This document shows positions 30,341-51,477 of a stretch of DNA of 64,000 nt, in pieces (the first letter of the stretch is position 1; each line of letters opens with the position of its first letter). Under the pieces are notes generated by a model. That model did no database searches, had not been told where the DNA came from, and saw only the letters and a list, made by a program, of their open reading frames with translations. This DNA is from a virus, in IMG/VR virus record IMGVR_UViG_3300007775_000001, positions 50,951 through 114,950 of that record; one strand, given 5' to 3'. A program made the translations under genes and the position numbers.

Positions 30341-30787
30341 ATGTCTTCCTATCTTCCTCCTGCGAGAGAACGGTTGCGGAATCTTGTGGCAACGTGTGTA
30401 AGGCATGGTGACTTCACACTGAGAAGTGGTCAGAAGAGCGATACGTTCATTGATCTTGAGGAGGTGTCTAGCACTTCATTGTTCATGATTCTCTTTCTGG
30501 ATGTGCTCAGGGAGATCGTGCGAGGCGATGTGTATGACACCTTCATTGGCCCGTCGAAGGGTGCTGATCCTCTCGTCTATGTTGGACGAGAGGGTATCAG
30601 GAACAGGCGGGGGACAAGAGCGATTGTGTTGGAAGACGTGTTGACAACGGGTGGATCGGTGCTTCGTTGTATCGAAGAGTCCGGAATGACCCCTGTGCGG
30701 ATTGTTTCAGTTGTGGACAGAGGGTGTTCGGTTGAGCTACCCGCTCCCTATACCCCAATCCTGTCTATTGGCGAAATTTCTACGTAG
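30341..30787 (+). CDS. orotate phosphoribosyltransferase-like protein (shortened)
   Basis: GDFTLRSGQKS..FID and PRPP loop IVLEDVLTTGGSV...VVDR. Confidence 0.8.
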   Translation: MSSYLPPARERLRNLVATCVRHGDFTLRSGQKSDTFIDLEEVSSTSLFMILFLDVLREIVRGDVYDTFIGPSKGADPLVYVGREGIRNRRGTRAIVLEDVLTTGGSVLRCIEESGMTPVRIVSVVDRGCSVELPAPYTPILSIGEIST

Positions 30788-30791
30788 AAAC
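30776..30791. repeat. dispersed 16-bp palindrome, copy 5 (1 mismatch)
   Basis: ATTTCTACGTAGAAAC overlapping stop codon. Confidence 0.9.
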
Positions 30792-30805
30792 CGGAGTCTT
30801 GTAAA

Positions 30806-31060
30806 ATGGCGCGCGGGAATGTGGTCTGGTTCGATATCCAGAAGGGTTTTGGATTCATCACAGACGAGGCTCAAGGGGACGATGTATTTGTCCACTACTC
30901 GAAGATCGAGGGGCCAGAAGGTGAGTTCAAATATCTCGATGCTGGAGACCTTGTGGAGTTCGAGCGGTTTGAGGTGGACAGAGGTAATGGCCTGAAGAAA
31001 CCTCAAGCGAAGAACGTAAAGCTTGTCAGCCGCCGCGAAACCACAAAGGGCGACAAGTGA
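30806..31060 (+). CDS. cold-shock domain protein
   Basis: RNP1 KGFGFI and RNP2 VFVHYS; PQAKNV. Confidence 0.93.
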
Positions 31061-31752
31061 GATCAGAGATCGTGAAGTGGATTCGGATTGTTGTTTTCAG
31101 GACGGTGAAGGGAAAGGGGTTGATCAATCTTGACATTGACAACCTCATCTCCGCCGGATATCTGGGTTACGCTCAGGCGTTGAAGAACTACGATGAGCGT
31201 AAGAAGGTCAAGTTCAAGACCTTTGCTGAGTATCGCATCAAAGGCGCGGTACTTGACGAGGTTCGACGTGTGATCGGTGACGAGCGGTGTAAGACGGAAA
31301 GGCCAGTTAGGGTCAATGATGTCGATTTCGAGATGATCATTGATCCTCGTGACTATGGTTGTGAGTTCGAGATCGATTTCGAGAAGTTCATGGATGCGTT
31401 GCCGATGACTGTCCGTGAGAAGAACATTCTCCGATCACGCATTCAGGGTATGAGCCTGAAGGAGATCGGACAGCAGTTTAGGTTCAGCGAATCCCGTGCT
31501 TCTCAGATTCTCTATAGCATCCGTGTGAAGGCTGCACCAACGTTCGAGCGATTTTTTGGAATCAAGGTGGTGGTTGCACCAAGATTTCGCAAGTATCGGC
31601 GTACCTCGTCCGATAATGGAGTGAGGAGATTCCCGTGGAATCTGGCGTTTGCCGATATGTGTCGGCGCAACAGGGTGGGGCGAATCATTTCAATTCGGTC
31701 GCACCAATTCCCAATCCAACCTCTCCCTTGGCTTAGAGCGAGCGGTCAATGA
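31057..31752 (+). CDS. phage sigma70-family factor, FliA/WhiG-like
   Basis: [12 protein letters not shown]...YD.....[18 protein letters not shown]; region 4 [17 protein letters not shown]. Confidence 0.88.
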
Positions 31753-33617
31753 AGCTGACCTTGGACGATTACGCCGCTGTGTTGGATGACGTTGTCAAAG
31801 CGGCTTCCAAGAGTTCGGGACGCAAGACATTCGAAGATTTTGAAGAAGAGATCGGTAAGTCTCTAACCTTCAATCCGCTTGCTCCCACAGAGATGACTCC
31901 TGAAGTTGTTGCGAGAGAGGGTATTTACTCTCCCTATGCACAGGCTCCAGAAGGCGGGTTTGTACCGCATACCGCTGAGCACTGGATGGGGATGGGCAAA
32001 GACCCCGATGACTATCGCAACGTTCACCAGATTTATGAGGAAGCTGGTGCCAAACAGCCTTCTCTCGATAGCCTGAGACACATGTTCGTGCAAGCTATCG
32101 AAGACACTGATCGCGCTGGCCGAAGTTTCTCGTTCCTGTCGCGTTCTATCAAGCCGACTGAATGTGAAATGATCGTGAAGGGTATTCCTATGCCGTCCAA
32201 GGGTGGCGGCATGAAGGATATGGGGATGCCTGTGGGAACGATTCATCGGTTCAGTGATGGTAAGCAGTATCGGAAAGAAGCTCCTGGCAAGTGGGTTCCG
32301 GTGTCAGCCGGTGCGAAGCCGGGTGGAAAGGAAGACGCTACTCAGTCAGGACACGTTGAGATCGAGCGACATGCGATGATCACTCGTATTCGACAGGAGA
32401 TGGATCGTCGTACCAAAGCGGCTGCTGACCAGAAGCAGTTGGAAGGTCGTATGAAGCAGACGGCCAAGAAGTATGCGACCAAACAGACTGAAGCGGCTGG
32501 GATCAAGTCCCCGGTAGATCAGCTACCGAAAGACAAGGACAAGCCTGGAAACTTCGATCTGTTGGAAGGAGCGGACGCGGCGAAGAAGATTTACTTCATC
32601 GAGGGCTCGAAGGTCAAGATGGATCACGTTCAACAGTTCTTGAAGGAGTTCAGTCAGGACTTCAAGGACATCGATTCGAACGGTCAGAATTCGAAGTTCC
32701 GTGAAGACATGATGAGCAATGGGGCGTTGTATTATACATCCCGGCTCAAGGGGCCTGATTCTCTACTGAAGAAGATGCAGAGCAAGTATCTCGACCGCTC
32801 TCTTAACACGGTGACTGACGCGATTGGTGCGAGAGCGTTGGCAGGTAGTCTGGAAGATCAGAAGCGGCTCTTCACGTTCTTCAAGTCTCAGCATGAGTTG
32901 GTCGAAGAGGAAGACTTCGCTGAGCAGGGGCGTCCCGATGGATATCGGGCGATCCATTGTCTGTTCCGGACAAGTTCCGGAAAGATCGGTGAGTTTCAGT
33001 TCAAGACGATCAATCAACAGCTTTACTCTGGGTATTTCCATGACACGGTTTACAAGGGTAGTAAAGCTATTCAGGACGATCCAGAGGTAGCGAAATTTCA
33101 GAGAGATGTGTCGGACTATCTGCACAGGCTTGATTCTGGTCAGGAACAGTTCGATATCAATCGCGCTCCAAAGGCTCCAAAGCAACTTGTGGCTGCGAAG
33201 TACAAGGACGAGAAGGGTAAGGAGCAGACGGCTGGAGAGTTTCCTTGGGAAAACGTTCGGACTAAGAATGTGGGTGACTATCTGTACAAGGCAGATGACG
33301 AGTCTCAGAGTGTGAAGTATTTTCTGGTGTTGCGCGATAAGAAAGGCAACACGGTTGGAACCAAGAGCTACAACAGCCTGGAGGCTGCGCAGAAAGAACA
33401 GACACGTCTTCTCAATCAGAAGAACTATGGCGATCTTCCTATTGCTCAGGCTACGAGCGAGAAGGAGTTGTTCGCCACCTTCCATGAGTACAGACCACGG
33501 GTCGGCTCACAGGTTGACGATCAGAGCAAAGACAAAAGCCCTGCCAAGTACACAAGGGGTTCAAAAACGACCCCTCAGAAGCGGAAATTTGGGAGAGACC
33601 AAAATGGCTCACGATGA
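31749..33617 (+). CDS. head-module protein with RelA/SpoT-type small alarmone synthetase domain
   Basis: SRLK..DSL.KK, TDAIGAR, GYRAIH, EFQFKT, HD.VYK. Confidence 0.85.
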   Translation: MKLTLDDYAAVLDDVVKAASKSSGRKTFEDFEEEIGKSLTFNPLAPTEMTPEVVAREGIYSPYAQAPEGGFVPHTAEHWMGMGKDPDDYRNVHQIYEEAGAKQPSLDSLRHMFVQAIEDTDRAGRSFSFLSRSIKPTECEMIVKGIPMPSKGGGMKDMGMPVGTIHRFSDGKQYRKEAPGKWVPVSAGAKPGGKEDATQSGHVEIERHAMITRIRQEMDRRTKAAADQKQLEGRMKQTAKKYATKQTEAAGIKSPVDQLPKDKDKPGNFDLLEGADAAKKIYFIEGSKVKMDHVQQFLKEFSQDFKDIDSNGQNSKFREDMMSNGALYYTSRLKGPDSLLKKMQSKYLDRSLNTVTDAIGARALAGSLEDQKRLFTFFKSQHELVEEEDFAEQGRPDGYRAIHCLFRTSSGKIGEFQFKTINQQLYSGYFHDTVYKGSKAIQDDPEVAKFQRDVSDYLHRLDSGQEQFDINRAPKAPKQLVAAKYKDEKGKEQTAGEFPWENVRTKNVGDYLYKADDESQSVKYFLVLRDKKGNTVGTKSYNSLEAAQKEQTRLLNQKNYGDLPIAQATSEKELFATFHEYRPRVGSQVDDQSKDKSPAKYTRGSKTTPQKRKFGRDQNGSR

Positions 33618-36600
33618 CCTGTTGGCGAAAGCTGGCATTCGGGTCGGCAATCCAGCGGAGCGGCGTTTGATCAACGATGAGCCTTCTCATCGATTTGTGG
33701 TCAAGGGCTTCAAGAATAGAGGAAGCGTCTCTCGTGCTGGTTCTCAGTCCAGCCCCCGCGAGAATTTGCTTCGAAGTCTGGGCATTCCGGACGAGGGTGC
33801 TCTTGAGAAGGCTACTCTGTACGGGAACGATGGTGATCTGGAGTACGTTCCTGATACGTACACGGGTCAGGATGTGTATCATCAAGACCCGTACAACGAG
33901 GTTCAGGTGACACGTCAGGAAGTGCTCGATACGCATGGTGAGCATTTTCACAGCGATATCGATCCAGATGTGGAGCGCATTTTGAGTGAAGTTACCGAAG
34001 CGGGAACACACTTCGACTACACTCGTCAGTTCGGTCGTTCGATGGGTGCCTTCGATGGTGACGATGATGGTGATGACAACACAGAAGGTAAAGAGGAAGA
34101 AGAGAAGTCGAAGCTCAAGGCCAAGGATGTCAAGAAAGCTAGAAGAAGTGGCCCTGGTTCCCGTGGTGGAAGGGTAATTGGTCATACTCGTTCTGGCAAA
34201 CCGATCTATGACAACAGTGCGAAAAATCACAGTGGATTCACAAAAGAAGATCATGCCGATGCTCGTGATCTTCATACCTCTATCCATGAAAAGATGCTCG
34301 AAAGAGTGATGCATGGTGGAGAGTTTCCATCTGATTCGGCCATACTGAGCACAAAGGCCAAAGATTATCATGCTCGTTTGGCAAAATCTGAATCAGACGA
34401 TGAAGAAGAAAGCGACGAGGAGCCAGATGATGATGAAGACGATCAGGAGAAGTCTCTGTCTGGCATTTTGGATGATCTGATCAAGGGAGAGGGTGAAGGT
34501 TCTCGTGGTGGCAAAGTGATTGGTCATACATCGAGTGGGAAACCAATCTATATCCACGAGCCGAATTTGGGTACTTCTAGTGCTGGTGGTATCCATGGAA
34601 AGAATTATAAGGGGTGGAATTGGAAAGATCATGAAGAAGCGTATGCTGCGCATTCTGCCGCTGCTAATTCTCTCGTACAGAAGCATGGTGGGTATCCAAA
34701 AGGTGATGATGCAAAGACTTATGTGCAGCATGCTCACAACAAGGATGCACATTACTTTTGGGCAAAAAAGACTGGTCATCCTGAATTGAACAAAAGCCTG
34801 GGAAAGTCTAGTGCCGGGGAGGGTTCCAAGGGTGGTCAGGTGATCGGCCATACCCGCTCTGGCAAGCCGATCTATGCTCACGATTCAGCGATCTATGCCC
34901 ATGGCACAGGCGCTTTCAGTGGGTACAGCAAGGGTGATCACTTTGATGCCTACACGCGCCATTCAAACGATCTGAAGTACAAACGTGGTCGTAGTGGGAA
35001 GAAGAACTTCTTGTCCGCGATGAAGCTCCATTCGCAGGCTTACTACGCTGCGAAGAGCGAGCGTGATCCAGACCTTCCAGACTTTTTGAAGTCGAAGAGT
35101 GGCGAGGGCTCTCGTGGTGGCAAGGTGATTGGTCACACACGGTCTGGCAAGCCGGTCTATGAGGGTAAGGCGGCGTCTAAGTATTCTGATTTTTCACGTC
35201 AGGATCACAAAGATGCTGCTGCCCAACACATGCGTCATTGGCATGATGATGACTCAGAGAGTGCGGACGGGAGTGATCAAATTTCGGTCGATCATGATCG
35301 ATTGTCTTTGACTCCAGAGCAGTTGAAGAATCGTGATGCCAAGCGCCGTGGTGTTCTTGGCAAAAAGTCTGTTTCTGTTCTGGACGATTTGGTCAAAGCT
35401 GTAACTGGCGAGGGCTCCCGTGGTGGTGTGGTTGTGGGTCATACATCGAGTGGCAAACCCATCTATCAAGGTGAGACTCATTCGACACGGATTCACACTA
35501 CGACTGGCGAAGAGACTTCCCATGTGAATTCGTACATCCAGCATGCGGGTGATGAGAAACCGTATGGTGGTGAGAACTACCACGTTTTCTATCAACGCAA
35601 GGGTGCTCAAACCCAAGGCGACAATGAGACTGATGCGGATCGGGATTACGTTGGGTATGTGATCCGCCACAAAGACGAGGGCATATGGTCTGGTCACCCT
35701 GAGATCACGAGCATGAGTGCTTACAAGCAGGCGAAGAACTTCAAGACCAGAGGCGAAGCTGAACACCATATCCTGAGCACCTATAAACGGTATCAGGAAG
35801 CGTCGAAGCCGAAAGATCAAAAAGCCGCTAGCGTCCAGGAGGCGAACGATCTGTACAAGGCTTTGATGGATATCTCGTTGAACAAAGCCACCGATGCCCA
35901 AGAAGACAAGGTGCATCAGGTGATGCGCGAATTCAAAGAAGGCACGCTTCGTTCGGGGAGCAAGACTGGCCCGAAGGTCAAGAACCGGAAGCAGGCGATT
36001 GCCATTGCCATGAATCAGTCTGGGCAGTCGAACAAGTCTGACGATGAGGCGAGCGATCTTCTCAAGAGCAGAATCTTCCCCATCGGTACAGTTCATACGT
36101 TCAGTGATGGCAAGCAGTACAAGAAGGTCGCTAACAACGAGTGGCACCCTGTTAAGGGAGAAGGCCCACGTCGATATGACTACGCCGCTGCTGTTGACCA
36201 CAACAGCAAGATCGAGGTTGGTCAACATGTCCGTGTAAATTGGACGGCTGGGAGTTTCGGTCACTACACGGGCAAGGGCACCGTGACCAAAGTCAATGCC
36301 AAATCTGTAGCGGTGGCATTGGATGAACCCGTTGCTGATCAAAGTGGCCTTGGCGGAAGTGGCTATCCCGCTGGTCGTCGAATTGTTGTTCCACGGGCTG
36401 ACATGTTCAGTGGTGCAAACTCCAAATGGGCATGGCACAACGGAGTTTTCCCGGTTCATGGTGAGGGCAAGAAGTCGAGTATCGATGAATTGCTCGATCT
36501 TGTGAAAGCTGGCTCATCGAAAGAAGTTGCGCCAACTTCTACACCAACAAGAAGGACTGTTCCTTCCGCGCGCAACTCGTTCATCAAAGCGGCTGGCCCT

Positions 36601-37089
36601 GGAGGAGTCCTGTTCGATTTTGGTCATCTGACCGGGAACCTTGCTGCCGACAGATATTCCGAGCTTGCCAATCAGCATGCGGAGCCGCAACAGGCTGCAA
36701 TTCTGAAGTCTCAGAAAGCTGAGTACGATCAGGCTCTCGTGGAGTATGTCACTACTGGTCGTACGAGAGAACAGGATGTTTCTCCACAACAGGGTGCAGA
36801 TGTTCAGAAGTCAGATGAGCAACATGGTGCTCAAACGGCCGATGTGTCAAAGCCGGTCTTCATGGGCGATTTTCGGACTCAGTTCGAGAGCAAACAGGCT
36901 CGTGTTGGTAGTGAGGTCGTGAAGGCTCAGTCTGAGACCGACCAAGCTGTGATCGAGATGTTTGGTAAGAACCTGGGTGATGCTCCAACCGATATGACCA
37001 TGGCTGGGAAGACCCCGGTTGTTCTCGATCTGGCTTCGGGAGCGGCAATCGACATGCAGAGCGGCGAGCAGATTCAACCTGCTGAGTAA
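33604..37089 (+). CDS. modular head-associated polyprotein (5 GxGSRGG repeats, DUF6496-like and SH3-like domains)
   Basis: ATG 33604 with GGGAGAG RBS; internal repeats; many xxK[AS] sites; directly upstream of portal. Confidence 0.8.
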   Translation: MAHDDLLAKAGIRVGNPAERRLINDEPSHRFVVKGFKNRGSVSRAGSQSSPRENLLRSLGIPDEGALEKATLYGNDGDLEYVPDTYTGQDVYHQDPYNEVQVTRQEVLDTHGEHFHSDIDPDVERILSEVTEAGTHFDYTRQFGRSMGAFDGDDDGDDNTEGKEEEEKSKLKAKDVKKARRSGPGSRGGRVIGHTRSGKPIYDNSAKNHSGFTKEDHADARDLHTSIHEKMLERVMHGGEFPSDSAILSTKAKDYHARLAKSESDDEEESDEEPDDDEDDQEKSLSGILDDLIKGEGEGSRGGKVIGHTSSGKPIYIHEPNLGTSSAGGIHGKNYKGWNWKDHEEAYAAHSAAANSLVQKHGGYPKGDDAKTYVQHAHNKDAHYFWAKKTGHPELNKSLGKSSAGEGSKGGQVIGHTRSGKPIYAHDSAIYAHGTGAFSGYSKGDHFDAYTRHSNDLKYKRGRSGKKNFLSAMKLHSQAYYAAKSERDPDLPDFLKSKSGEGSRGGKVIGHTRSGKPVYEGKAASKYSDFSRQDHKDAAAQHMRHWHDDDSESADGSDQISVDHDRLSLTPEQLKNRDAKRRGVLGKKSVSVLDDLVKAVTGEGSRGGVVVGHTSSGKPIYQGETHSTRIHTTTGEETSHVNSYIQHAGDEKPYGGENYHVFYQRKGAQTQGDNETDADRDYVGYVIRHKDEGIWSGHPEITSMSAYKQAKNFKTRGEAEHHILSTYKRYQEASKPKDQKAASVQEANDLYKALMDISLNKATDAQEDKVHQVMREFKEGTLRSGSKTGPKVKNRKQAIAIAMNQSGQSNKSDDEASDLLKSRIFPIGTVHTFSDGKQYKKVANNEWHPVKGEGPRRYDYAAAVDHNSKIEVGQHVRVNWTAGSFGHYTGKGTVTKVNAKSVAVALDEPVADQSGLGGSGYPAGRRIVVPRADMFSGANSKWAWHNGVFPVHGEGKKSSIDELLDLVKAGSSKEVAPTSTPTRRTVPSARNSFIKAAGPGGVLFDFGHLTGNLAADRYSELANQHAEPQQAAILKSQKAEYDQALVEYVTTGRTREQDVSPQQGADVQKSDEQHGAQTADVSKPVFMGDFRTQFESKQARVGSEVVKAQSETDQAVIEMFGKNLGDAPTDMTMAGKTPVVLDLASGAAIDMQSGEQIQPAE

Positions 37090-37091
37090 CC

Positions 37092-38849
37092 ATGGGAATC
37101 ATTCAGAAAGCTGGTCGATATATCCTGGGCGAAATCGCTGGGATGAGACCCGATATGGTCAAGGCGGGTCTCATGTCTCCGGATTCGTCTGCCTACGATC
37201 CAAAGACATCCCTTGTCGATCCTCTCTCGTTTCAATCGCTCAGTGCATTTGGGTATCGAGAGAAGTTCAGTCTTCTGGATTACTCCCGGTTGCGGGCGAT
37301 CAGCTTGAATGATTCGGTGGTTGCTGCTGTGATTCAAACCCGGTTGAATCAGGTGGCTGGGTTTGCCACGTTGCAGGCCGACAAGCATACGGGTGGTTTC
37401 ACGATCCGTATGCGAGACAGGGACAAGAAGCCAAACTCTGCTGCTCAAAAGCGTATTAAGGAATTCCAGGAGTTCATGATCAACTGTGGTGTGCCTGAGC
37501 AGTTCGAAGACACACCGGAGCGTAAGCGTCGTGACAATTTCGACACCTTCTTGCGCAAGTTGACACGGGATTCTTTGACGTATGATCAAGCCAACTTTGA
37601 GATAACGCCAAGAAGGAATGGGATGCCGTACGAGTTCGGTGCGGTAGATGCCTCTACTATTCGGCTCATCCCGGACAAGAAGGAATTGATCGATCAGTTC
37701 AACAACGAGCGTGCAGCACAGTATGCTCTTCAGACGATGAAGGATACGATCAAGGTTGCTGAGAATTCTGGCAAGGTCTTCAAGCCCCGTCATCCGAAGT
37801 ATGTCCAGGTGATCAATGGGATCATCAAGCACGACTACGATGAATGGGAGATGGCGTTTGGTGTACGCAACCCCCGGACAGATGTAATGTCGTATGGGTA
37901 TGGATTCAGTGAGATCGAAATGCTGGTGACGATCATCACTGCACACATGAATGCGGAGACCTACAACCGGAAGTTCTTCACACAGGGGACAAACGCCAAG
38001 GGAATTCTCCACTTCGAGGGTCAGGTTCCGCGTGATCAACTTCAGGAGTTCCGGCACCAATTCCACATGCAGGCGGCTGGAATCGCCAACTCCTTTAAGA
38101 CCCCGATCATTGCGACGGCAAAGGAAACTAAGCTTCAGTGGATGGACTTCCAGAAGTCAAACCGCGAGATGGAATTTGGGCGGTGGTTGGAATACTGCAT
38201 CAAGGTTGTCTGCTCTGTTTACCAGATCGATCCGATTGAAATCGGATTCGACATCTCTCGAATGGGTTCGGGTGCATCACAGGGCGGTGGGTATGGGATG
38301 GGTGCCAGTGCTGGTGACCCGACTTCCAAAATTTCGAGTTCTCAGGACAAGGGACTCAAACCATTGCTGCGCTTCCTCCAATCGCTGATCAATGACTACA
38401 TCGTTTACCGATTGGATGCGGACTTCGAGTTCGAATTTGTTGGTCTCAACGCGGACTCTGATAGCGAAGCTCTGGACAAGATTGGCAAAGAGGTCAAGAC
38501 ATTCAAAACGATCAACGAGGTCAGGGCGGAGCAGGATAGACCTGCTTTGCCTCCTCTTGATCAGATTGAGTCTCCTGGTGATCTGCTTCTCGATAGCACT
38601 CTTCTTACTATTTGGGGACAAGAGAGACAGGCAAAACAACAGCAAGACATGATGGCTCAGCAAGGGCAGGACGGTGGTGATGGGAATCCCGTTGGCGAAG
38701 ATGAGCAGCCTGATTACCAGAACATGAGTGATGAAGACCTTCAGCAACAGTACAAGAAGTTGCAGGAAGGCGGCGGTGGTGGTGGAAGCCTTTCCCAAGG
38801 TGGCGTCAACAAATCGATGCCCCGGTTGACTCGCACACTGAGACTGTGA
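37092..38849 (+). CDS. portal protein
   Basis: Herelleviridae-type: II.TR.NQV..F, DSLTYDQ.NFE, VDASTIR, RNPRTD...YGYGFSE.E, YN.KFF.QG, DP.EIGF, S.DKGLKPLL.F, TINEVR. Confidence 0.92.
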   Translation: MGIIQKAGRYILGEIAGMRPDMVKAGLMSPDSSAYDPKTSLVDPLSFQSLSAFGYREKFSLLDYSRLRAISLNDSVVAAVIQTRLNQVAGFATLQADKHTGGFTIRMRDRDKKPNSAAQKRIKEFQEFMINCGVPEQFEDTPERKRRDNFDTFLRKLTRDSLTYDQANFEITPRRNGMPYEFGAVDASTIRLIPDKKELIDQFNNERAAQYALQTMKDTIKVAENSGKVFKPRHPKYVQVINGIIKHDYDEWEMAFGVRNPRTDVMSYGYGFSEIEMLVTIITAHMNAETYNRKFFTQGTNAKGILHFEGQVPRDQLQEFRHQFHMQAAGIANSFKTPIIATAKETKLQWMDFQKSNREMEFGRWLEYCIKVVCSVYQIDPIEIGFDISRMGSGASQGGGYGMGASAGDPTSKISSSQDKGLKPLLRFLQSLINDYIVYRLDADFEFEFVGLNADSDSEALDKIGKEVKTFKTINEVRAEQDRPALPPLDQIESPGDLLLDSTLLTIWGQERQAKQQQDMMAQQGQDGGDGNPVGEDEQPDYQNMSDEDLQQQYKKLQEGGGGGGSLSQGGVNKSMPRLTRTLRL

Positions 38850-39415
38850 TGAAGAAAATCATTCGCGATGCATTCTCGTATGTTGAGTACAAGGGGAAGA
38901 CTGCGCCGCAAGAGCGATGCAGTACTTGCTTCTATGGGACGTTTCCAGGAAGTAAGTGCTCGTTGTACGAGGCTATCAATGGGTTGATGCCCGAAGCATG
39001 GAATCTCGAAGATACCGTGAATCCAAACGGAGCATGCAACGCTTTTACTGACAAGGAAGTGACAAAGGCAGTGATTAGACGTGATCCGATTTTTGTGCTG
39101 AAGGCTGGTGGCGAGGGTTCTCGTGGTGGCAAGGTGATTGGTCACACATCGAGTGGAAAGCCGATTTATGGAGATAGTCATTTGAGAGGTACGCGGGAAT
39201 GGTCTGAGCGTGACCATTTTGAAGCGTATCACGTTCATGGTAAGGCGGATAGACCGGGTTCTTCGCTTGAAGACGCTAGACTCCATTCTGCCGCAAGGTC
39301 TTATCATCTTAGTGAGGGTAGTAAGGTTGGTGGAATCAAGAATGATGGGCCACATAAAAGACATCCTTGGTTCACATCAAGCGGTCAACGGAAACGGTTT
39401 ATGAGCAGATCATGA
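38849..39415 (+). CDS. HiPIP-like Cys4 domain fused to GEGSRGG repeat
   Basis: Y........CSTC.......CSL...VNPNGACNAF then LKAGGEGSRGGKVIGHTSSGKPIY. Confidence 0.6.
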   Translation: MKKIIRDAFSYVEYKGKTAPQERCSTCFYGTFPGSKCSLYEAINGLMPEAWNLEDTVNPNGACNAFTDKEVTKAVIRRDPIFVLKAGGEGSRGGKVIGHTSSGKPIYGDSHLRGTREWSERDHFEAYHVHGKADRPGSSLEDARLHSAARSYHLSEGSKVGGIKNDGPHKRHPWFTSSGQRKRFMSRS

Positions 39416-39639
39416 TCGAAGTCAAGATCAGTGCGGATACTCAAGAGGAGTTCGATGCCAAACGTGCCGATCTTGCCAAGGCTGTTATCGGCCCGAAGGC
39501 TATCACCCCTCGAAAGGCTTATCATCGGTATCAGAACGACTTGCTGGACTATGTGAACGCACTATACCTCAAGCGTATAGCGCAAATGAAGCGAGAGATC
39601 GATGTTGTGATCCGGCGCGCCCAGGCGCGAATCCAATGA
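39412..39639 (+). CDS. hypothetical protein
   Basis: ATGA coupling; contains DLAKA. Confidence 0.6.
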   Translation: MIEVKISADTQEEFDAKRADLAKAVIGPKAITPRKAYHRYQNDLLDYVNALYLKRIAQMKREIDVVIRRAQARIQ

Positions 39640-39869
39640 AGATTCTGCTGATGATCACTGTGGTGGCGATGTCGGGTGTCAAAGCTCCTGCAATCAGCTT
39701 CAAGAGCATGTGTGATGCGATTGATCCTGAAGCTATCACGCTCATCACAATTCGGCCTTTCAGGGACGCACAGAATGGGACTGTTATTCCAGGCGTTGTC
39801 TACCAGTGTGTGCGGATCACGGAAGGTGAAGAGAAGGGCACCAAACCTCAAAGGAAGCAGAAGGCATGA
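39636..39869 (+). CDS. hypothetical protein with signal-peptide-like N-terminus
   Basis: ATGA coupling at both ends. Confidence 0.5.
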   Translation: MKILLMITVVAMSGVKAPAISFKSMCDAIDPEAITLITIRPFRDAQNGTVIPGVVYQCVRITEGEEKGTKPQRKQKA

Positions 39870-42800
39870 GCAGTTTCTACGTAGAAACTGAATCTGTTTC
39901 CAAGGGTGGTCGAGAGGTTGCTTCCGTTGCGGTGATGAGCGGGTCGAATCTCTTGATGGGCCGCCGCAAGGATTCTGGCGAGTGGACTTTGCCGGGCGGT
40001 GGATTGGAACCGGGCGAGAAGCCCGAAGAAGGGGCCAAGAGGGAGCTTTTTGAGGAGGCAGGGGTCAGGGTAGGGCAGCTCCGATATCTGGGCTCCAGGC
40101 GCGTTAAGGGCGTTCCTGATAACGATCTGATCACGGTGCATGCCTTCCTGGTGCATCAACATGGGAAGGCAACTGTCCGAAACGATCCTGACAAGGAAGT
40201 GAGCCGGTGGTCATGGATCGATGTGAGCAACGGTCTTCCGAAAGCGATTGAAGATGAACTTCACTCCCCACGGAACGTGGTTCTCATGATGATGGGTATT
40301 CAGAAAGAGCCAAAACCGTCCCTGGTGATTCGATCTGACCTGGGGCCTATCGACCTATCCAAGATGTATGGAGGAGGGGTTGGAGAGGCTTCTGACAGCG
40401 AATTTGGTACCTATTCTGGCGGTGGTGGGAAAAAGCCGGGTGGCCCTGGTTCTCGCGGTGGAAAGGTGATCGGACGTACACGGTCTGGGAAACCGATCTA
40501 CGAGAGCGCATCCCATTATGGTCACAACAGCTTCTTTGCGGAAGAGCATCTTCAGGCTGCTGAAGCGCACAAGCATCATGCAGGGAGTTTGCTTGAACAC
40601 ATGAAGGGCAACCTTCATGGGAATACTTCGAATTTCAAGACGCTGATGGGCAAGATTGAAGCCCACATGACTGAGGCCGATGAGCATCGGAAGAAAGCTG
40701 GAACCGCTCCAAAAGCTCCCCGCAAGAAGGCCGAGCCGGCCAAGAAGGAGTATCGCTATGCAGCTTCCGTATTCGATGATTCGGATATCATCAAGAGTCT
40801 GGAGGCCATAGTTAAGCATGTCGAAAAGCCCGGTTCTCGTGGTGGTCATATCATCGCCTGGAGAGATGGCGAACCGATTTATGGAAAGGAGCAGCCAAAA
40901 GTTAAACGTAAGGTGGCTAGTGCTACAGTCAAATACACAACAGCATTGAGTCCTAGTGGGAAGAAAGAAAACGTGGCTGTTCATTTGAATCCATCCGCTG
41001 ATGATTTGGCTGAACATATTCCAGCCGGTGCAAGAGCGTGGCTTCTGCCGGGTGGAAATTTGTATGTCATGGACAACAAGAATATTTTGCATCTTTCTGC
41101 TATCGAGTCTGTGATGAATTCTGGATTCATCACCAAGCAGCAATTCAGAGATATCATCCCGCCAAAGAGTTTCTTGAGTGATACCGATCCTTCTGAGGGT
41201 ATCATGTTGGAGAGAGTTGGTAATTCCAATATGTTTGTGTTGGGTGAATCTTATGAAGGCGGTGTTCCGGAGGGTGATGAGCTATCTGACATCAAGGATT
41301 CGATCAGAGCTTTCAAGAAAAATTCAAAAGGCGTGATCATCCGGCCAAGTAGTATTAGAGATTTCAATGTCGAAGACTACTTGCATATGAGCTTCGATCA
41401 AGAAGAATTTGATCTGTGGAAGGCGGATGATAAGATGATTTCCACTCCCCAGAAGGGGATGGTTAAAAAGCATGAACATCTTGTCCGCGTCCCGAAGACA
41501 CCAAGCCATATGAGCTTTTTTGTGAAGGCTGCTCCAGGAGAAGTCCGCCCTGGTCACAAGTATTTGCGACGGTACAGACGGAATGATCAGTGGGTATACG
41601 TCTATCGCGAGCCAGAAGGTGATACCCGTGAATTGAACGAGGAGGCTATGTCGCTTCTTCACCATCTTGCGGCGCGTGGTGACGAAGATGCCACGTATCT
41701 TCTGAACAACCTGAAAGAGAAAGCGGCTGACGAGGTTCTTGATCGTGAGTTGAATGGCACGGAACGTCATGATGTTGTGCAGATGATTCGGAACAGTCTC
41801 GATCAGAATGTGTTCCGATATTTGAATCAGTATACTACGAGCCCGTTCCATCAAACGCTCACACGGAATCGTGTGACGTTGGATTCCGTGATGTCTCAGG
41901 TTCAGGGACAGACATTGCGCGGTCTGCTGACAAGTTATCACAACGCCCTGCGAGATGTGGATCGGGCTCATTCGACATTGCAGATCACGAGTTCTCAGAA
42001 CACTGATGCTCGCGGTGCGGGTGGTTATGCAAATCTTGCGTACAACAGAGCCTTGCAGGCGTTGGAGACTCGTACTGCGTTCTTGCCAGCGCGCTATTCC
42101 GAAGTCCATCGGAGAGGTACACGGAGCGGTTCGAATGATCTTGAACCGTTTGTGAACACTCAAGAGATACGAGAAGCCGCTGAGCGCCAAGAGCGAGAGC
42201 GTCAAGCTGCCGAAGCTGAACGCGAACGACAAGCCGCTGAAGAACGCGAGCAGATCATGGGTGAGTATCGCACCAAGATGACCGGTGCGATCATCGATCA
42301 TCTTGATCCTAGCGTTCATGTTTCTCCTGACAAGATTGCGACCATCCATCGTGCTCTGAAGAACATGTTCGGTGGCAATGTTCCTACACGGGAACAGTGG
42401 CCTTACGACTTTTCACAGTATGGGTACAGGGTCAAGATTTCTGATGTGGCCGCTGACAACAATACCATCTCGTTCGCACTGAGCGCGACCAACGCTTCTG
42501 GAGAGCAAGTCACTCGTTCATGGCGTCGGAATTGGCGGAACAACGGTGGTCATCCAGCGATCTACAACGCGCTCCTGGAGACCTATCCATCCGCTCGTGG
42601 GACTGGCCCTGAGATTGGCGAGTTGATCAACAAGGCTCAGAACAAGTTGATGCATGAGACCGATCCTGACCATGGTGTGATTGGAGTCTTCGCTGCAATG
42701 ACAGTGGGTGGCTACAATTGGGCCAATCAGGGCTTCAGATTTGATCGGGCAAGTGGTGATCGTGGTGTGGTTTTGATGCAGTTTAGGAACTTCCTGGCTG

Positions 42801-43735
42801 AGCATGGGATCAGATTGACAGACGAGGAACTGAGTCACTTCAAGGAGCCATGCCATTTTGCCGCTTTCCATGATGGCAAGTTCTACGAGGTGCATACTTC
42901 GGACGATCTCGCACTGAAGCCCGATCAGGTTGCTCATGGAACATTGGACGGGAAACCTGGAGGTAGACCGCTTACTCCTTCTGAGATTAGCGCAGGTCGC
43001 ACCAATCGAATGCTTGTTCACCTTGGCAAGATGTTTCTCTTGGGCAAGTCATGGCACGGTATCTCTAGGGCTTCGGAGCAGAATGACCGCAACGAGGCGT
43101 GGCGGTTCTTCCAGATTTATCGTCGCATGAAGGTGGATTCCTGGAAGGTACTCAATGACCGATACAAGGCTGCTGTTGAAGCTGTACAGCAGGGCCAGCG
43201 CACTATGACTTCAGAGCAGCGAGCGGCTGCGATTTCAAGCTACAACCCGTACGTGCGGAGAGGAAGTAGGCGTCGAAGATCGTCAACTATTCGAAGACCG
43301 AATCGATTCAGGGATTGGACTCCAACCCAACAGAGAACTTGGATTGATCGGAATCGCGGTCAGTTGTCGGATGCTCAATACAATTCGGCATGGGAAGTGA
43401 TGAGAAGTGCGAGACATCGTGTTGACATGGCGAGTCGTGCTCTTCAGACGTTTGTGAATGATGGTATTGTGACCGCGCCTTCGGCACCTCTCAATGAGAT
43501 GAACGAGACAGACCTTCGACACTTTTTCCATGGTGAGTATAATTACTCAACGCGGACACAGGTTTCGCAAGGTGTCATGAATGAGCTTCGAGCGCATTAT
43601 GGTGAAGGCGATACAGCAATCTACAATCGCCATTTCCGGGAACTCAGGTTCTATCAGGACGATTTGATCAATGCTCGTCGTGCTCGTATTGCCGCTGAAG
43701 CGCGGCCAGCCGGACAACAAAGAGCAACAGGATAA
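39866..43735 (+). CDS. modular head-associated polyprotein: Nudix hydrolase, GxGSRGG repeats, GNAT-like domain
   Basis: Nudix box GGGLEPGEKPEEGAKRELFEEAG; PSARGTG..IG...VGGYNWANQGF. Confidence 0.8.
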   Translation: MSSFYVETESVSKGGREVASVAVMSGSNLLMGRRKDSGEWTLPGGGLEPGEKPEEGAKRELFEEAGVRVGQLRYLGSRRVKGVPDNDLITVHAFLVHQHGKATVRNDPDKEVSRWSWIDVSNGLPKAIEDELHSPRNVVLMMMGIQKEPKPSLVIRSDLGPIDLSKMYGGGVGEASDSEFGTYSGGGGKKPGGPGSRGGKVIGRTRSGKPIYESASHYGHNSFFAEEHLQAAEAHKHHAGSLLEHMKGNLHGNTSNFKTLMGKIEAHMTEADEHRKKAGTAPKAPRKKAEPAKKEYRYAASVFDDSDIIKSLEAIVKHVEKPGSRGGHIIAWRDGEPIYGKEQPKVKRKVASATVKYTTALSPSGKKENVAVHLNPSADDLAEHIPAGARAWLLPGGNLYVMDNKNILHLSAIESVMNSGFITKQQFRDIIPPKSFLSDTDPSEGIMLERVGNSNMFVLGESYEGGVPEGDELSDIKDSIRAFKKNSKGVIIRPSSIRDFNVEDYLHMSFDQEEFDLWKADDKMISTPQKGMVKKHEHLVRVPKTPSHMSFFVKAAPGEVRPGHKYLRRYRRNDQWVYVYREPEGDTRELNEEAMSLLHHLAARGDEDATYLLNNLKEKAADEVLDRELNGTERHDVVQMIRNSLDQNVFRYLNQYTTSPFHQTLTRNRVTLDSVMSQVQGQTLRGLLTSYHNALRDVDRAHSTLQITSSQNTDARGAGGYANLAYNRALQALETRTAFLPARYSEVHRRGTRSGSNDLEPFVNTQEIREAAERQERERQAAEAERERQAAEEREQIMGEYRTKMTGAIIDHLDPSVHVSPDKIATIHRALKNMFGGNVPTREQWPYDFSQYGYRVKISDVAADNNTISFALSATNASGEQVTRSWRRNWRNNGGHPAIYNALLETYPSARGTGPEIGELINKAQNKLMHETDPDHGVIGVFAAMTVGGYNWANQGFRFDRASGDRGVVLMQFRNFLAEHGIRLTDEELSHFKEPCHFAAFHDGKFYEVHTSDDLALKPDQVAHGTLDGKPGGRPLTPSEISAGRTNRMLVHLGKMFLLGKSWHGISRASEQNDRNEAWRFFQIYRRMKVDSWKVLNDRYKAAVEAVQQGQRTMTSEQRAAAISSYNPYVRRGSRRRRSSTIRRPNRFRDWTPTQQRTWIDRNRGQLSDAQYNSAWEVMRSARHRVDMASRALQTFVNDGIVTAPSAPLNEMNETDLRHFFHGEYNYSTRTQVSQGVMNELRAHYGEGDTAIYNRHFRELRFYQDDLINARRARIAAEARPAGQQRATG
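39873..39888. repeat. dispersed 16-bp palindrome, copy 6 (20-bp perfect)
   Basis: CAGTTTCTACGTAGAAACTG just inside ORF start. Confidence 0.95.
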
Positions 43736-43737
43736 TC

Positions 43738-43941
43738 ATGCCAAAAGACATCAAGCCAATCGAGTCGGTCAAAGACCGACTCGTTGATGTGAATGACATT
43801 GACAGCGAGCTTGACATCGATCCGTATTTCGGTGAACAGGTCGCTGACGCGGCGCGGGAATCGTTCAAGGAGTCCAATCCTGGTCTGTATGCTGTACTGA
43901 CCAAATACCGGAATCATGGCACTGACAGCAAGGGAACTTGA
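43738..43941 (+). CDS. hypothetical protein
   Basis: Closely coupled ORF. Confidence 0.55.
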   Translation: MPKDIKPIESVKDRLVDVNDIDSELDIDPYFGEQVADAARESFKESNPGLYAVLTKYRNHGTDSKGT

Positions 43942-44953
43942 GGAGATTCGCGATATCGTCCGTAGGCATTATCTTGCTCTGACGCATGATGCCACGGGTA
44001 ACATTTCGCTGACTCCAGCGGAACTTGCTGAGCTTCGCCGTGCTGGTCTGATCACTGGTCGTGAACCGGTGGTTATGCAGAATGCGTACGAGTTCGGCAA
44101 GGTGGCCGTTGCTGTGGGGCCGATTGCGGCCAGAGCCATGACGGTTGAACAAGTGCGTCTGGCGATTTCGAAAATGAAGCCTCTGACTGAAGTCGAGAGG
44201 GCCTCATTGGATTTCGCTCGTGCAAGTGCTGGGCAGTACATCAAGGGCATTATGGACATGACCCTGAAGGATGCCACTACTTCTGCAATGCGTGCTTCTG
44301 GTGCGGCATTGAGGGCTGTTCAGGAGGGTGTTTCAGAGGCAGTGGCAGACCGCAAGACGATCAGCGAGCTTCGCACTGAATTGTTTAACACCATCGACAA
44401 CCGGTCTCGTGACTGGACACGTATCGCTCACACAGAACTGACCAACGCGATCCAGAACGGTATCTACAATGAGATCAGGGATACCTCTCCGGCGGGGGCC
44501 GATCAGGTGGTGTTCAAGAGTCCGAATCCAGATGCCTGCAAATACTGCAAGGCACTCTATCTAAAGCCTGATGGAATTACACCACGGGTATTCAAGCTGA
44601 GAGACCTGGAGCCGTCAAACTTCGGCAGACGAGCGCGTGATTGGAAGCCTGTTGTTGGTGCAACTCATCCATGGTGCAACTGCCAGATTCACATCGTTCC
44701 GGATGGGTACGACTTTGTCACGAGGCCAGTGGTTCAAGAACAGTTTGACGAGGGCGGGAAGACGTACAAGCAGGGTCAACGATTGAGCGAGACAGAGTAT
44801 CGTACACTTCGGTCTTCGCATGCCGACAAGATAGGGAAAGGAGCGATTCTTGAGTTCACTGGTACGACGGCTGCACCAGAGATCATGAGAAGCATGTTGG
44901 ACAGTATCCCTATCCATTCGGTTGACGAGGAAGAACCGATCTGCGAGTGCTGA
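43916..44953 (+). CDS. MuF-like (SPP1 gp7) head morphogenesis protein
   Basis: RIAHTELTNA...G...ACKYC...THPWCNC. Confidence 0.85.
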   Translation: MALTARELEEIRDIVRRHYLALTHDATGNISLTPAELAELRRAGLITGREPVVMQNAYEFGKVAVAVGPIAARAMTVEQVRLAISKMKPLTEVERASLDFARASAGQYIKGIMDMTLKDATTSAMRASGAALRAVQEGVSEAVADRKTISELRTELFNTIDNRSRDWTRIAHTELTNAIQNGIYNEIRDTSPAGADQVVFKSPNPDACKYCKALYLKPDGITPRVFKLRDLEPSNFGRRARDWKPVVGATHPWCNCQIHIVPDGYDFVTRPVVQEQFDEGGKTYKQGQRLSETEYRTLRSSHADKIGKGAILEFTGTTAAPEIMRSMLDSIPIHSVDEEEPICEC

Positions 44954-44954
44954 G

Positions 44955-47240
44955 ATGCCAAGAGGAACCCACAAGTACATTCGACGCGAAGGCACTTCGG
45001 GCAACTATCGCTACTTCTATTCCGATGCTCAAGGTCGGGAGAAGCCAGCGACGGACGAGAAGCATCGGAATGCTGTTCGCGATCACATTCGCCGTCTGAT
45101 CATTCATTTTCTTGGTCAAGGCGCACGGCCAAACTCAGAGGTGATGCAGCAAATTGCGAACGAGGTGGGCGTTTCTGTCCGTACGGTCTGGGACAATCTT
45201 TCCAATATGCGTCAACGTGGTTCGCGGCGTGTGCGTAGGAATGAAGTGTCTGCGGCTGGTCAAGACTTGGCTGCATGGGGTCACGATTACGATACGCATC
45301 ATATCAGTGAGGCGGGATCGAGTGTTGGTTCTGCGATGAATCAAGAAGCTGTTGATCGTGCTCGTGGAGTTGAACGGGCTTCTTCCAGACCAACACCAGA
45401 AAGGGTGCGTGCAAACAGGGTAGCTTCCCAGCAGCCCGGTTGGTCTCAGGTCAATGATCTTGCTACGTTTCGCACCAAGGCCAGTACGAGACCCGGTTTG
45501 CGTTTCGGTTTTTTGAACGAGCACGGCGATCCGTCTCTATATCAGGTGACGGGTGTCGTGCCCACTGGTATTTCCGTCAGCATCGTTCAGAATCCAGTCG
45601 ATCCAAGTCGTGTTGGACACGTAGGGGATATCCACAACAATTACCTGAGCACGGTGATTTCAGAGGGTCGGCTTGGTATTCCCGATACTCAAGAAACACC
45701 ATCAACACCTCCTCAGATTGAAAGGGAAGCGCAAGAAGCTGAACCTTCTGATGAGGGTTCTCCCGCTCCACATGTGACGGGCCTGACACAAACTCTGTCT
45801 TATTGGCTCAATCTTGATCGTAGGGCGAGAAGCACATCGGCTGTAACGAGTGCTCATGAATGGAGTCGGTTGGCTCGTAACTATGAGCTTGAACTCAACT
45901 ATGCGGCTGATGTTTTGAAGGATAATAACATCTCTCGTTGGAGAGATGTTCGGGCAACGGCTGGGATCATTGGCTCGTTGATGAGTGGTAGTCATTCGGT
46001 CGGTGACAAGGCGGCTGCACTCAACAATGCTCGCGTGCAGTTGAGATGGGCTTCTGGTGCTGTCTATGCAATCCGTTCTGCTCGTGGCGAGCGGGGCAAT
46101 GATCGGAGTCTTCGCAGTTTGACGGGTAAATCTGTGGAAGTTGTGCGGCCTGCTCTTCGAGACAATGATCTTGTGGTTCTGCCGAGTGGCGTTGTCGCTG
46201 AGATTCAGAACCATGATGACAGGGGTTTCACGGTTCGCACTCAATACGATCCGGGTGGCGCTCTTCCTCAGACGATTGAAGTTCGTGGAAGTTTGGTTGA
46301 GCAGATCGCGTCTGGTTCGTATCTCCATGTGAAATCATCGCGTGAACCAATTCCTGTTGTTGAAGCAGAGAGCAGGCGGACGCGCCGACCAAATCTTGCT
46401 CTGGGTAACAGAGTGAGAACACGGACGGGTCAGACCGGAACTGTTGTATCCATGCATCGCAATAACGAGAATACGGGGTGGGGTGGTGCCCACGTGGCAT
46501 GGGACTCTTCTCCCGATAATCCCGTGTATGTGAATGCCTCTGGATTGCGACGGATGGAGCATAGCAGACCGTCTTCAACTGATCCGCGACCCGAAACTCC
46601 TGAGCTTCAGAGCACTTTCGAGCAGAGAATCCGTGGCTCTCATGGTCGAAGCGAGAACACTTTCCAACTAGACACGAGTCGAATGGAAGGTGCAAGACAT
46701 GGTGGTTTGCACACTGGAACCTATCAAGTGTTGTATGTTCATGGAGGAACAGTAACGCTTGGTATTCCTAATGGTGGACAGCATTCCATTCCGATCACGG
46801 AACTTGACAGGATGAGAAGGTCTGGTGCGACTTTCAGATTCGCACCGGTTAGAGGTCAACACGACTACTTTACAAGTGCATACAATCCGGTTCCATTGCA
46901 GCGTGTGGGTGCTGAGCCGCCCCCAAGACATGCACCAACTGCTGACCCACATCCTGCACATCGTCCTGAGAATGCAGCGGGCGAGGTTGCTGCTTCTCCG
47001 ATTGCCGGAACGCCTGCTGAGATTAGAGAAAGGTTGCGACGTGAACACGGGATCGATCTTGATCGTGTGACACGACATCGCTTCGGAATCAATCGCTCGT
47101 TCATTGTCGAGGAGAAACAAACTCTTCGGAAGGGACGTGTGCTGTTGGTCGTTGACAAGGATGCCGAAGAGGCTGATGGATTTCAAAGTCTGATTCACGA
47201 GAGAACTCATGACTTGCGATCTTACGTGTCGGTGCGGTAA
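44955..47240 (+). CDS. modular protein: HKYIRR motif, HTH and SH3/KOW-like domains
   Basis: QQIANEVGVSVRTVWDNLSNMRQRG (HTH); LGNRVRTRTGQTGTVV (SH3-like). Confidence 0.7.
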   Translation: MPRGTHKYIRREGTSGNYRYFYSDAQGREKPATDEKHRNAVRDHIRRLIIHFLGQGARPNSEVMQQIANEVGVSVRTVWDNLSNMRQRGSRRVRRNEVSAAGQDLAAWGHDYDTHHISEAGSSVGSAMNQEAVDRARGVERASSRPTPERVRANRVASQQPGWSQVNDLATFRTKASTRPGLRFGFLNEHGDPSLYQVTGVVPTGISVSIVQNPVDPSRVGHVGDIHNNYLSTVISEGRLGIPDTQETPSTPPQIEREAQEAEPSDEGSPAPHVTGLTQTLSYWLNLDRRARSTSAVTSAHEWSRLARNYELELNYAADVLKDNNISRWRDVRATAGIIGSLMSGSHSVGDKAAALNNARVQLRWASGAVYAIRSARGERGNDRSLRSLTGKSVEVVRPALRDNDLVVLPSGVVAEIQNHDDRGFTVRTQYDPGGALPQTIEVRGSLVEQIASGSYLHVKSSREPIPVVEAESRRTRRPNLALGNRVRTRTGQTGTVVSMHRNNENTGWGGAHVAWDSSPDNPVYVNASGLRRMEHSRPSSTDPRPETPELQSTFEQRIRGSHGRSENTFQLDTSRMEGARHGGLHTGTYQVLYVHGGTVTLGIPNGGQHSIPITELDRMRRSGATFRFAPVRGQHDYFTSAYNPVPLQRVGAEPPPRHAPTADPHPAHRPENAAGEVAASPIAGTPAEIRERLRREHGIDLDRVTRHRFGINRSFIVEEKQTLRKGRVLLVVDKDAEEADGFQSLIHERTHDLRSYVSVR

Positions 47241-47427
47241 CAAGCTGGCGAAGTCTCAGAACGGTGAGGTCAAACTTCGCGTCAAGCTCGTGAAGTGGAA
47301 CCGCAACGGGATGTTCGCTGTATGCAAGTCGTGCGGTGACGATGTTTCCGTGGATGTCGAATTCTTGAAGGGGCTGGAGTCTAGCTTTGCCTATGAGGTG
47401 GAAGCTCACTCTTCAGTTTCTACGTAG
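47209..47427 (+). CDS. small zinc-ribbon protein
   Basis: CRCGNKLAK...VCKSCG. Confidence 0.7.
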   Translation: MTCDLTCRCGNKLAKSQNGEVKLRVKLVKWNRNGMFAVCKSCGDDVSVDVEFLKGLESSFAYEVEAHSSVST

Positions 47428-47927: not shown

Positions 47928-48035
47928 GGGTTGACATTCTGAAAGTTCAGTTGTAGGGTAATCAAAATCCTACCTCGCAAGAGACTCGCGTTTGACGGAG
48001 TGGCGGGGGATGCAGGCGAAACAGGGTCTCTTGCT

Positions 48036-51468: not shown

Positions 51469-51477
51469 ATTGAACTG

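Follow-up and report, generated by a model that had tools for sequence, protein, structure and literature searches.

How does a tailed phage bring several unrelated effector domains into a single head, and how are these domains parted again? The addressing and separation of multi-effector head proteins are known for only a few model phages (T4, P1 and phiKZ-like phages), and the question is raised here by the head module of the viral record IMGVR_UViG_3300007775_000001 from IMG/VR, which by sequence belongs to an uncultured phage with a Herelleviridae/SPO1-type head module. We analyzed a window of 64,000 nucleotides, the right-hand 64 kb (bases 50951-114950) of this 114,950-bp record with direct terminal repeats, and all coordinates below are positions in that window. 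A first-pass annotation had proposed that five modular genes between terL and the prohead protease gene encode polyproteins that are loaded into the prohead, cut into separate effectors and injected with the DNA. We confirm the five genes, which are interleaved with the portal gene and a MuF-like gene, and their sequences indicate that they most likely encode polyvalent (multi-effector) virion proteins of a phage type. On balance, sequence comparison leads us to favor the reading that they are enzyme cargo loaded into the capsid, cut apart there and delivered with the DNA.

Five candidate cargo genes share three short peptides

Three short peptides recur in these genes, as had been claimed. 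Tag1, a Gly/Arg-rich stretch running into G-H-T-x-S-G-K-P-I-Y, is present in eight copies in three genes, while tag2 (G-T-x-H-x-F-S-D-G-K-Q-Y) and tag3 (H-K-Y-x-R-R ... Y-x-Y) are each present in two copies in two genes. Within the 115-kb genome, all three tags are confined to these five putative cargo genes, which are laid out as follows.

31749-33617, plus strand: g31749 (622 amino acids, aa), with an N-terminal domain, tag2 (32229-32306), a RelA_SpoT domain (32739-33062) and a small C-terminal domain
33604-37089, plus strand: g33604 (1161 aa), with five tag1 domains, DUF6496 (35902-36015), tag2 (36079-36156) and a C-terminal unit from about 36490
34156, 34498, 34822, 35107 and 35413, plus strand: tag1 cores of g33604, from the comparison of shared peptides
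38846-39415, plus strand: g38846 (189 aa), with a Cys-rich N-terminal part, a K86 site (39089-39106) and one tag1 domain (core 39116-39181)
39866-43735, plus strand: g39866 (1289 aa), with a NUDIX domain (39920-40234), a tag1 domain (40448-40513), a K310 site (40781-40798) with a degenerate tag1 unit, K519 and K554 sites (41408-41530), tag3 (41555-41620) and a C-terminal region of about 700 aa without family assignment
44955-47240, plus strand: g44955 (761 aa), with tag3 at its extreme N-terminus (44970-45035) and a weak helix-turn-helix (HTH) match (45144-45221)

The gene starts listed in the first-pass annotation hold, apart from 38849, which is the second codon of an open reading frame (ORF) that starts at 38846. 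Its cargo labels fared unevenly: RelA_SpoT in g31749 (Pfam E 3.4e-11), NUDIX in g39866 (E 2e-19) and DUF6496 in g33604 (E 8.9e-9) are sound, the HTH match is weak (E 6e-4, with a 100-aa piece), the SH3-like label is not significant in a profile search (E 0.12), and the GNAT-like and HiPIP-like labels found no profile support. No peptidase family was found in the five cargo proteins in Pfam, NCBIfam or PHROGs, and g38846 had no match of any kind in these three collections; its best scores in the ESM Atlas (0.85) belong to a low-confidence model that is not usable.

Aligned with four relatives, g31749 keeps its N-terminal domain, the sites at K17, K37 and K144, and tag2, with the C-terminal cargo swapped. 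An AlphaFold model of the whole protein (5 sequences) is too poor for domain boundaries at a mean predicted local distance difference test score (pLDDT) of 47.8; it has a confident small C-terminal domain beyond the K514 linker and three strands at tag2. In g39866, the K554 site and tag3 are conserved in L055 and L046, two loci of close relatives, and the g44955 homologues found at the same position in these two loci likewise begin with tag3.

A lysine motif shared with the probable capsid-maturation site

The first-pass annotation had described domain boundaries marked by a hydrophobic residue, any residue, then Lys followed by Ala, Ser or Gly (h-x-K-[A/S/G]). All 15 motifs that it named in the cargo genes are found where it placed them, as are those that it named in the major capsid protein (MCP), scaffold, portal and protease. 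The neighboring genes of the head module that bear on this motif are given here.

28859-30337, plus strand: terL, 5' of the cargo genes
37092-38849, plus strand: portal (PF04860 and phrog_12, E 1.5e-45; about 40% identity to SPO1-group portals)
43916-44953, plus strand: g43916 (345 aa), divergent MuF-like minor head protein with four invariant Cys and one His
48000-48902, plus strand: prohead (head maturation) protease (phrog_1028, E 1.6e-47), the proposed cutting enzyme
49111-49956, plus strand: acidic scaffolding protein (phrog_15087), with 10 motif matches
49993-51468, plus strand: MCP (phrog_752, E 3e-89), with a predicted cut after K34 (50077-50097)

Both the MCP and the portal share 36-41% identity with their counterparts in SPO1-group Bacillus phages, and solved capsid proteins of SPO1 (gp6.1) and of the phi812 type can be aligned with the MCP. 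In the phi812-type protein the motif that ends in K34 has its counterpart, and the residue matching A35 is the first one of PDB chain 9row (439 aa), whose full-length equivalent 5lii has 463 aa; from these sequences we take 9row to be the mature form as deposited. In A511 and K-type phages, about 23 residues are lost from the capsid protein. A [D/E]-[L/I]-x-K|A site is kept in 15 of the 15 MCP homologues from related contigs that include the N-terminus, and the MCP N-terminus of the cultured Bacillus phage YungSlug is nearly identical to the one here. These comparisons support h-x-K-[A/S/G] as the capsid-maturation site of this head lineage.

The motif is also unevenly spread over the genome. 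In head-module proteins, [LIVFM]xK[ASG] occurs 1.06 times per 100 aa versus 0.39 in the other 145 ORFs (2.7-fold denser), and when an upstream acidic residue is included the densities are 0.53 versus 0.08 per 100 aa (6.6-fold). When the matches in each protein were compared with shuffles of that same protein and expressed as z-scores, the top three in the whole genome were the protease (10 observed versus 1.6 expected, z 6.9), the scaffold (10 versus 1.6, z 6.8) and g33604 (18 versus 5.0, z 6.1). Across relatives, the ratio of observed to expected matches is 5.9 for the scaffold and 4.2 for the protease, with 0.93 for terL and 1.2 for the MuF-like protein, and tagged proteins are still enriched 1.85-fold (z 15.7) once the sites adjacent to tags are left out. 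Enrichment reaches z 7.8 in the protease and z 11.3 in the scaffold of YungSlug. Most K-[A/S] columns of the scaffold here are invariant in comparison with two relatives at 37-49% identity.

Tags follow the site within a few residues

Clustering of the 30 residues that follow acidic-h-x-K-[A/S/G] matches, with no assumption as to what stands there, recovered tag1, tag2, tag3 and a fourth hairpin, together with the MCP N-arm, the portal N-terminus and a conserved C-terminal peptide. This fourth hairpin (tag4, G-P-Y-I-G-P-R-G-G-K-W ... H-T-I-P-W) is not in the window; it heads many units of giant proteins at loci L008, L023, L043, L021 and L061 (e.g. L008:15-5228).

Coupling between site and tag is tight. 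K-[A/S/G] lies 2-5 residues upstream of 289 of the 314 internal tag1 cores, versus a 28% background, with a hydrophobic P3 residue in 85% and often an acidic P4 or P5. Internal copies of tag2 (16 of 16), tag3 (17 of 17) and tag4 (14 of 15) are likewise preceded by the site, versus a 15% background, and the site-to-tag distance over all families is 2-6 residues. Tag copies that lack a site stand at the very N-terminus, as in g44955. Tags are therefore always N-terminal or would become so upon cutting. Motif statistics, conservation and tag coupling, all of them read from sequence, together favor cutting by the prohead protease.

Tag1 is widespread in uncultured phages. A search with a tag1 profile built from the eight units, one of the checks suggested in the first-pass annotation, matched, out of 1.84 billion cluster representatives, 1,818 at E <= 0.001 and 980 at 1e-10, which places the domain in about 1,800 protein clusters at 50% identity; the matching proteins usually hold 2-8 copies and almost no Pfam domain. 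Scanning IMG/VR with an alignment query yielded 76 viral loci with tag1, and a scan with the single portal protein yielded no close relatives. At 60 of the 76 loci, tag1 has within 10 kb a counterpart of the portal, MuF-like protein, protease, MCP or terL of this phage, and in the close relatives L055, L006, L046 and L074 the gene order is the same and the cargo different. Tag1 appeared in only three contigs from metagenome-assembled genomes in a scan of a genome collection, and g33604, a tag1 unit and a multi-tag1 protein found no match by tblastn in 50,697 cultured phage records. Myxococcus phage Mx1 keeps the capsid site and encodes a 1479-aa Nudix protein near its head genes, with no tags and no motif enrichment by the patterns used here.

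Two contigs with a portal of another family (phrog_146) differ in their leaders: L048 (5215-9459) and L040 (1898-2467) encode six or seven stand-alone tag1 proteins whose leader ends in M-R/T-N-D, not h-x-K, and the K motif is rare across both contigs. These leaders may co-vary with another protease specificity, or may not be cleaved.

Sites coincide with gene boundaries in relatives

Several cargo units that are fused here are separate genes elsewhere. The last 190 or so residues of g33604 form a separate gene just 5' of the portal in four relatives, and all four of these stand-alone units keep the short acidic leader ending in the Lys site that is found inside g33604. For g39866, the unit that follows K310 is encoded on its own in L048, as is the Nudix unit in L006. 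Relatives also have genes for single tag1 domains; among 23 such stand-alone proteins, 17 have a leader of 25-40 residues ending in a K site. These sequence comparisons support the view that the motif marks joints at which relatives have gene boundaries. Since stand-alone genes keep leader and site, the site is retained even where there is nothing upstream to separate, which by analogy with T4 and SPN3US would be the hallmark of a propeptide removed inside the prohead.

Beyond the cargo found here, relatives have tagged proteins with InPase, Zeta toxin, LPD1, SAM lyase, DUF5661 and DUF6582, and by analogy this supports a repertoire like that of packaged early effectors and polyvalent proteins.

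A further conserved element lies at the C-terminus of g33604, where a peptide S-E-T-D-x-A-V-I-E-M (36910-37086) is kept at the end of the gene directly 5' of the portal in seven relatives. Because the preceding residue is not always Lys, a cut at this point is improbable, and the peptide could be a portal-docking tail.

Tag1 is the hairpin of a larger His-rich domain

The first-pass annotation had described a short tag followed by variable cargo. For tag1 this description fails: AlphaFold modeling makes the tag the hairpin of a single conserved, His-rich domain of about 85 aa. The model of the tag1 unit (103 sequences, pLDDT 80.6) runs from a flexible leader and site through a beta-hairpin, which is the tag itself, to two long helices with conserved His and Asp. 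In this model the site is accessible, since leader and site have a pLDDT of 50-61 while the hairpin and helices exceed 90. A fold search with the tag1 model against PDB and BFVD returned no match at E <= 0.001. The sequences behind tag3 are unrelated to one another, and this tag is more like a true header.

In the tag1 domains (34156-35478, 39116-39181 and 40448-40513), the His of G-H-T, a D-H pair and additional His residues of the helices are conserved. Ferritin-like and YHYH domains occur in a few members of the tag1 family, and a metal site in the tag1 domain is possible.

Nor does the parallel that had been drawn between the tags and the T4 capsid-targeting sequence hold, as the order here is site and then tag, and the T4 sequence is removed whereas the tag here would stay. 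Because the hairpin follows the site, it would remain on the released piece. A closer analogue of the T4 targeting sequence, and a targeting candidate at least as good as the tags, may be the acidic leader helix before the Lys. The basic hairpins could keep the fragments inside the capsid by binding DNA or the shell, or could serve ejection; that they have any targeting or retention role at all seems to us somewhat doubtful. A complex prediction for the scaffold with the tag1 unit scored 0.00 and gave no answer.

Proposed pathway and competing explanations

The units follow one plan: a short acidic-hydrophobic leader, then hydrophobic-x-Lys|Ala/Ser/Gly, and within 2-6 residues a small basic/aromatic beta-hairpin. 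The sequences establish this grammar together with its statistics, its conservation and its link to the head lineage. In the pathway that we propose, the cargo proteins would co-assemble into the prohead with the scaffold, portal and MuF-like protein, and the prohead protease (48000-48902) would cut them after lysines, as it would the scaffold, itself and the MCP. The freed units, comprising a RelA/SpoT-type nucleotide pyrophosphokinase, a Nudix hydrolase, arrays of the His-rich domain of about 85 aa and DUF6496, would stay in the capsid, exit with the DNA and act early in the next cell. From the sequence evidence above, we consider cutting of the cargo quite probable and its packaging likely; ejection stands at about even odds.

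A number of observations weigh against this pathway. The motif enrichment in the head module, which holds overall, does not extend to g44955 (1 observed versus 0.7 expected) and is weak in g31749 (6 versus 3.0) and g39866 (7 versus 3.7), and the excess in g33604 is partly non-independent, as the motif there belongs to a duplicated unit. The K514 site that follows the RelA/SpoT domain of g31749 is not conserved in the alignment with four relatives, the last K site of g33604 is not conserved among relatives, and no canonical site precedes the tag1 copy at 40448 in g39866. The mature N-terminus of the phi812-type capsid protein was taken from the length of a deposited sequence, and the cargo proteins and their relatives are known only as sequences. 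Next to the tags, the motif could be an integral, uncleaved part of the module, and pieces of only about 10 kDa might leave the prohead as scaffold fragments do, and so go undelivered.

The first of these last two points can be extended into an account without any proteolysis, in which motif and hairpin form a conserved N-terminal cap, the polyvalent proteins act at full length and the likeness to the capsid site is convergent. The motif is indeed short and common (0.39 per 100 aa even in unrelated proteins), its tight spacing from the tag is what one structural element would give, and the two contigs with another portal family have tag1 behind a Lys-free leader. Yet the spacing varies by 2-5 residues, and P2 and P1' vary while the Lys and the hydrophobic P3 stay; the site region is modeled as flexible, the leaders of stand-alone units have the site as their sole conserved end, the motif is enriched in the tag-free scaffold and protease too, and the excess in tagged proteins outlasts the removal of tag-adjacent sites. 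We find an absence of cuts at the cargo joints quite improbable. Also improbable, though worth keeping in view, is that g33604 and perhaps other cargo proteins are assembly aids, an auxiliary scaffold or core that binds the inner shell by its hairpin and helical-hairpin domains and is chopped at the Lys sites and expelled before or during packaging, with the enzymes as passengers or as late-acting proteins of the producing cell. The motif density of g33604 does resemble that of the scaffold, and the tag1 domain is modeled to end in a helical hairpin, which is the coat-binding shape of some scaffolding proteins such as that of P22; in addition, most tag1 proteins in databases have no recognizable enzyme, and some relatives have tag1 inside protease-scaffold fusion proteins. 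However, assembly does not require a tag1 protein, since cultured phages with this type of head manage without one, and the SAM lyase, Zeta toxin, Nudix, InPase and RelA/SpoT domains that relatives have on the same cassettes make sense only in a host cell. To treat the five gene products as late enzymes outside the virion whose genes happen to lie in the head operon, with motifs of no bearing, would fit the occurrence of moron-like genes in head operons and the adjoining sigma-like, cold-shock and PRTase-like genes, but would leave unexplained the site-tag grammar, its restriction to five genes, the conserved position around the portal and MuF-like genes, and the N-terminal leaders; we hold it to be very improbable.

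Relation to known systems

A close likeness to the proposed cargo, cut apart in the prohead and delivered, is found in the polyvalent proteins of phages and conjugative elements (Iyer, Burroughs, Anand, de Souza and Aravind 2017, PMC5512222), large multidomain effector proteins of late or virion gene neighborhoods for which RelA/SpoT, Nudix-linked InPase, PRTase and LPD domains and an association with MuF or portal are named. As in those proteins, at least two unrelated domains share a polypeptide here (NUDIX and tag1 in g39866, the N-terminal domain and RelA_SpoT in g31749, tag1 and DUF6496 in g33604), and the genes stand among late packaging genes, flanking the portal and the MuF-like gene in an order that relatives maintain. 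The repertoire is shared as well, with RelA_SpoT and NUDIX in the window and InPase, LPD1, Zeta toxin and SAM lyase in tagged relatives. For the release of polyvalent domains, a zincin-like metallopeptidase embedded in the protein, which is common but not obligatory, or an assemblin-like peptidase at the C-terminus has been proposed (PMC5512222); neither was found in the five proteins here with Pfam, NCBIfam or PHROGs. Neither the Lys site nor the leader or hairpin motifs are mentioned in the text of PMC5512222. A literature search found no description of the leader-site-hairpin grammar, and the tag1 peptide had no text match.

Processing at capsid-type sites is itself familiar. As summarized in PMC10052503, the T4 internal proteins IPI-III and Alt carry a capsid targeting sequence processed by the prohead protease gp21 (Mullaney and Black 1996), and they resemble the stand-alone units of relatives in being carried in the head and ejected, both presumptively here, and in having a short N-terminal leader that ends in a prohead-protease motif. 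T4 cuts after Glu in L/I-x-E with a protease unrelated in sequence, whereas here the residue is Lys, the protease is of phrog_1028 and the MCP is SPO1-like; moreover, T4 cargo consists of single proteins, in contrast to polyproteins with internal joints and a conserved hairpin that would be left on the mature piece. In giant phages (SPN3US with its gp245, and phiKZ-like phages), many internal and ejection proteins are cut by the prohead protease at one short motif, copies of which are predictable from sequence and were confirmed by mass spectrometry at 14 sites in nine proteins (PMC10052503). There, the protease's own self-cleavage apart, N-terminal propeptides are removed and polyproteins are not segmented, and both motif and head lineage differ. 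DdrB and DarA of phage P1 are processed and packaged as well. Relative to T4 and the giant phages, processing here would differ in its Lys motif, its head lineage and its internal joints that segment polyproteins.

Within Herelleviridae (SPO1 gp6.1, phi812/K-type phages and A511), portal, protease and MCP are homologous (about 36-41% identity) and the predicted capsid site here likewise follows a Lys, but the cultured members have neither tag1 nor multi-unit cargo genes. In YungSlug, the slot of the cargo genes, between the MuF-like gene and the portal, is taken by an 869-aa gene annotated as a PARP polymerase (L083:13345-15954), which shows neither tags nor motif enrichment. MuF-fused polymorphic toxins of temperate phages place variable effectors, including RelA/SpoT, on a minor head protein (Jamet et al. 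2017, PMC5576092). Their effectors, too, are thought to travel in the capsid; they stand at the MuF C-terminus, whereas g43916 lacks one and the cargo lies in neighboring genes with leaders of their own. With its 115 kb and terminal repeats, the phage studied here also looks lytic.

Separation of polyvalent proteins has so far been guessed to proceed via an embedded metallopeptidase. The grammar described here predicts, residue by residue, where the head protease of a very large group of uncultured phages should cut and with what the released pieces would begin, which makes the question of cutting directly testable and their early anti-host arsenal readable from sequence. A bolder proposal is that the leader-site-hairpin cassette is a portable address label, such that any domain placed behind it would enter SPO1-type proheads, be freed, be held by the hairpin and be delivered. 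We regard this as rather unlikely, but if true, the label would be a general modular protein-delivery code of thousands of uncultured phages that could be reused for engineered cargo, and a portable cassette would offer a handle for loading foreign proteins into phage heads.

Other features of the head module

Plus-strand ORFs alone span 91% of the genome, and all genes therefore run one way. Greedy two-strand ORF calling was dropped, as long spurious antisense ORFs displaced real genes; an 892-aa open frame on the minus strand (48817-51495), antisense to the protease, scaffold and MCP genes, is spurious given the one-strand layout and the strong homology of the plus strand. The head module reads terL, a PRTase-like gene, a cold-shock gene, a sigma-70-like gene, g31749, g33604, portal, g38846, two small ORFs, g39866, a small acidic ORF, the MuF-like gene, g44955, g47478, prohead protease, scaffold and MCP.

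The portal has a conserved h-x-K|A-G site at residue 24 (37146-37166), part of a cluster of 12 segments from eight loci, and the portals of relatives have a second site about 18 residues beyond the first; by sequence, this suggests that the portal N-terminus is trimmed. The assignment of g43916 as MuF-like is indirect, because it has no direct Pfam match and only other members of its 17-member family do: one matches PF04233 Phage_Mu_F (1.6e-5), and another has a fused polyvalent-type InPase. Homologues occur in cultured Bacillus, Lysinibacillus and Bacteroides phages, one of them annotated as a minor capsid protein. The protein ends shortly past the MuF-like core, and relatives include orthologues that run on beyond it, for instance into InPase or Hint.

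Inside the protease, positions 48582-48674 encode a copy of about 30 residues of the mature MCP N-arm following a K site (66% identity by tblastn). This copy is kept in L055, L006 and L005, and it could be a self-cleavage site or a means of co-assembly with the capsid protein. At two other loci (L038:9893-13189 and L039:11197-14493), the protease is a 1098-aa fusion that also holds an MCP-N-arm-like site and a tag1 core.

A Cys-rich ORF of 72 aa (47209-47427) with zinc-ribbon-like spacing overlaps the end of g44955, and its three motif matches may be due to chance. Between terL and the first cargo gene, three genes (30341-31752) lie inside the late head operon: a PRTase-like gene with a weak match (E 1e-4, below the cut-off), a cold-shock-domain gene (E 7e-20) and a sigma-70-like gene with regions 2 and 4.

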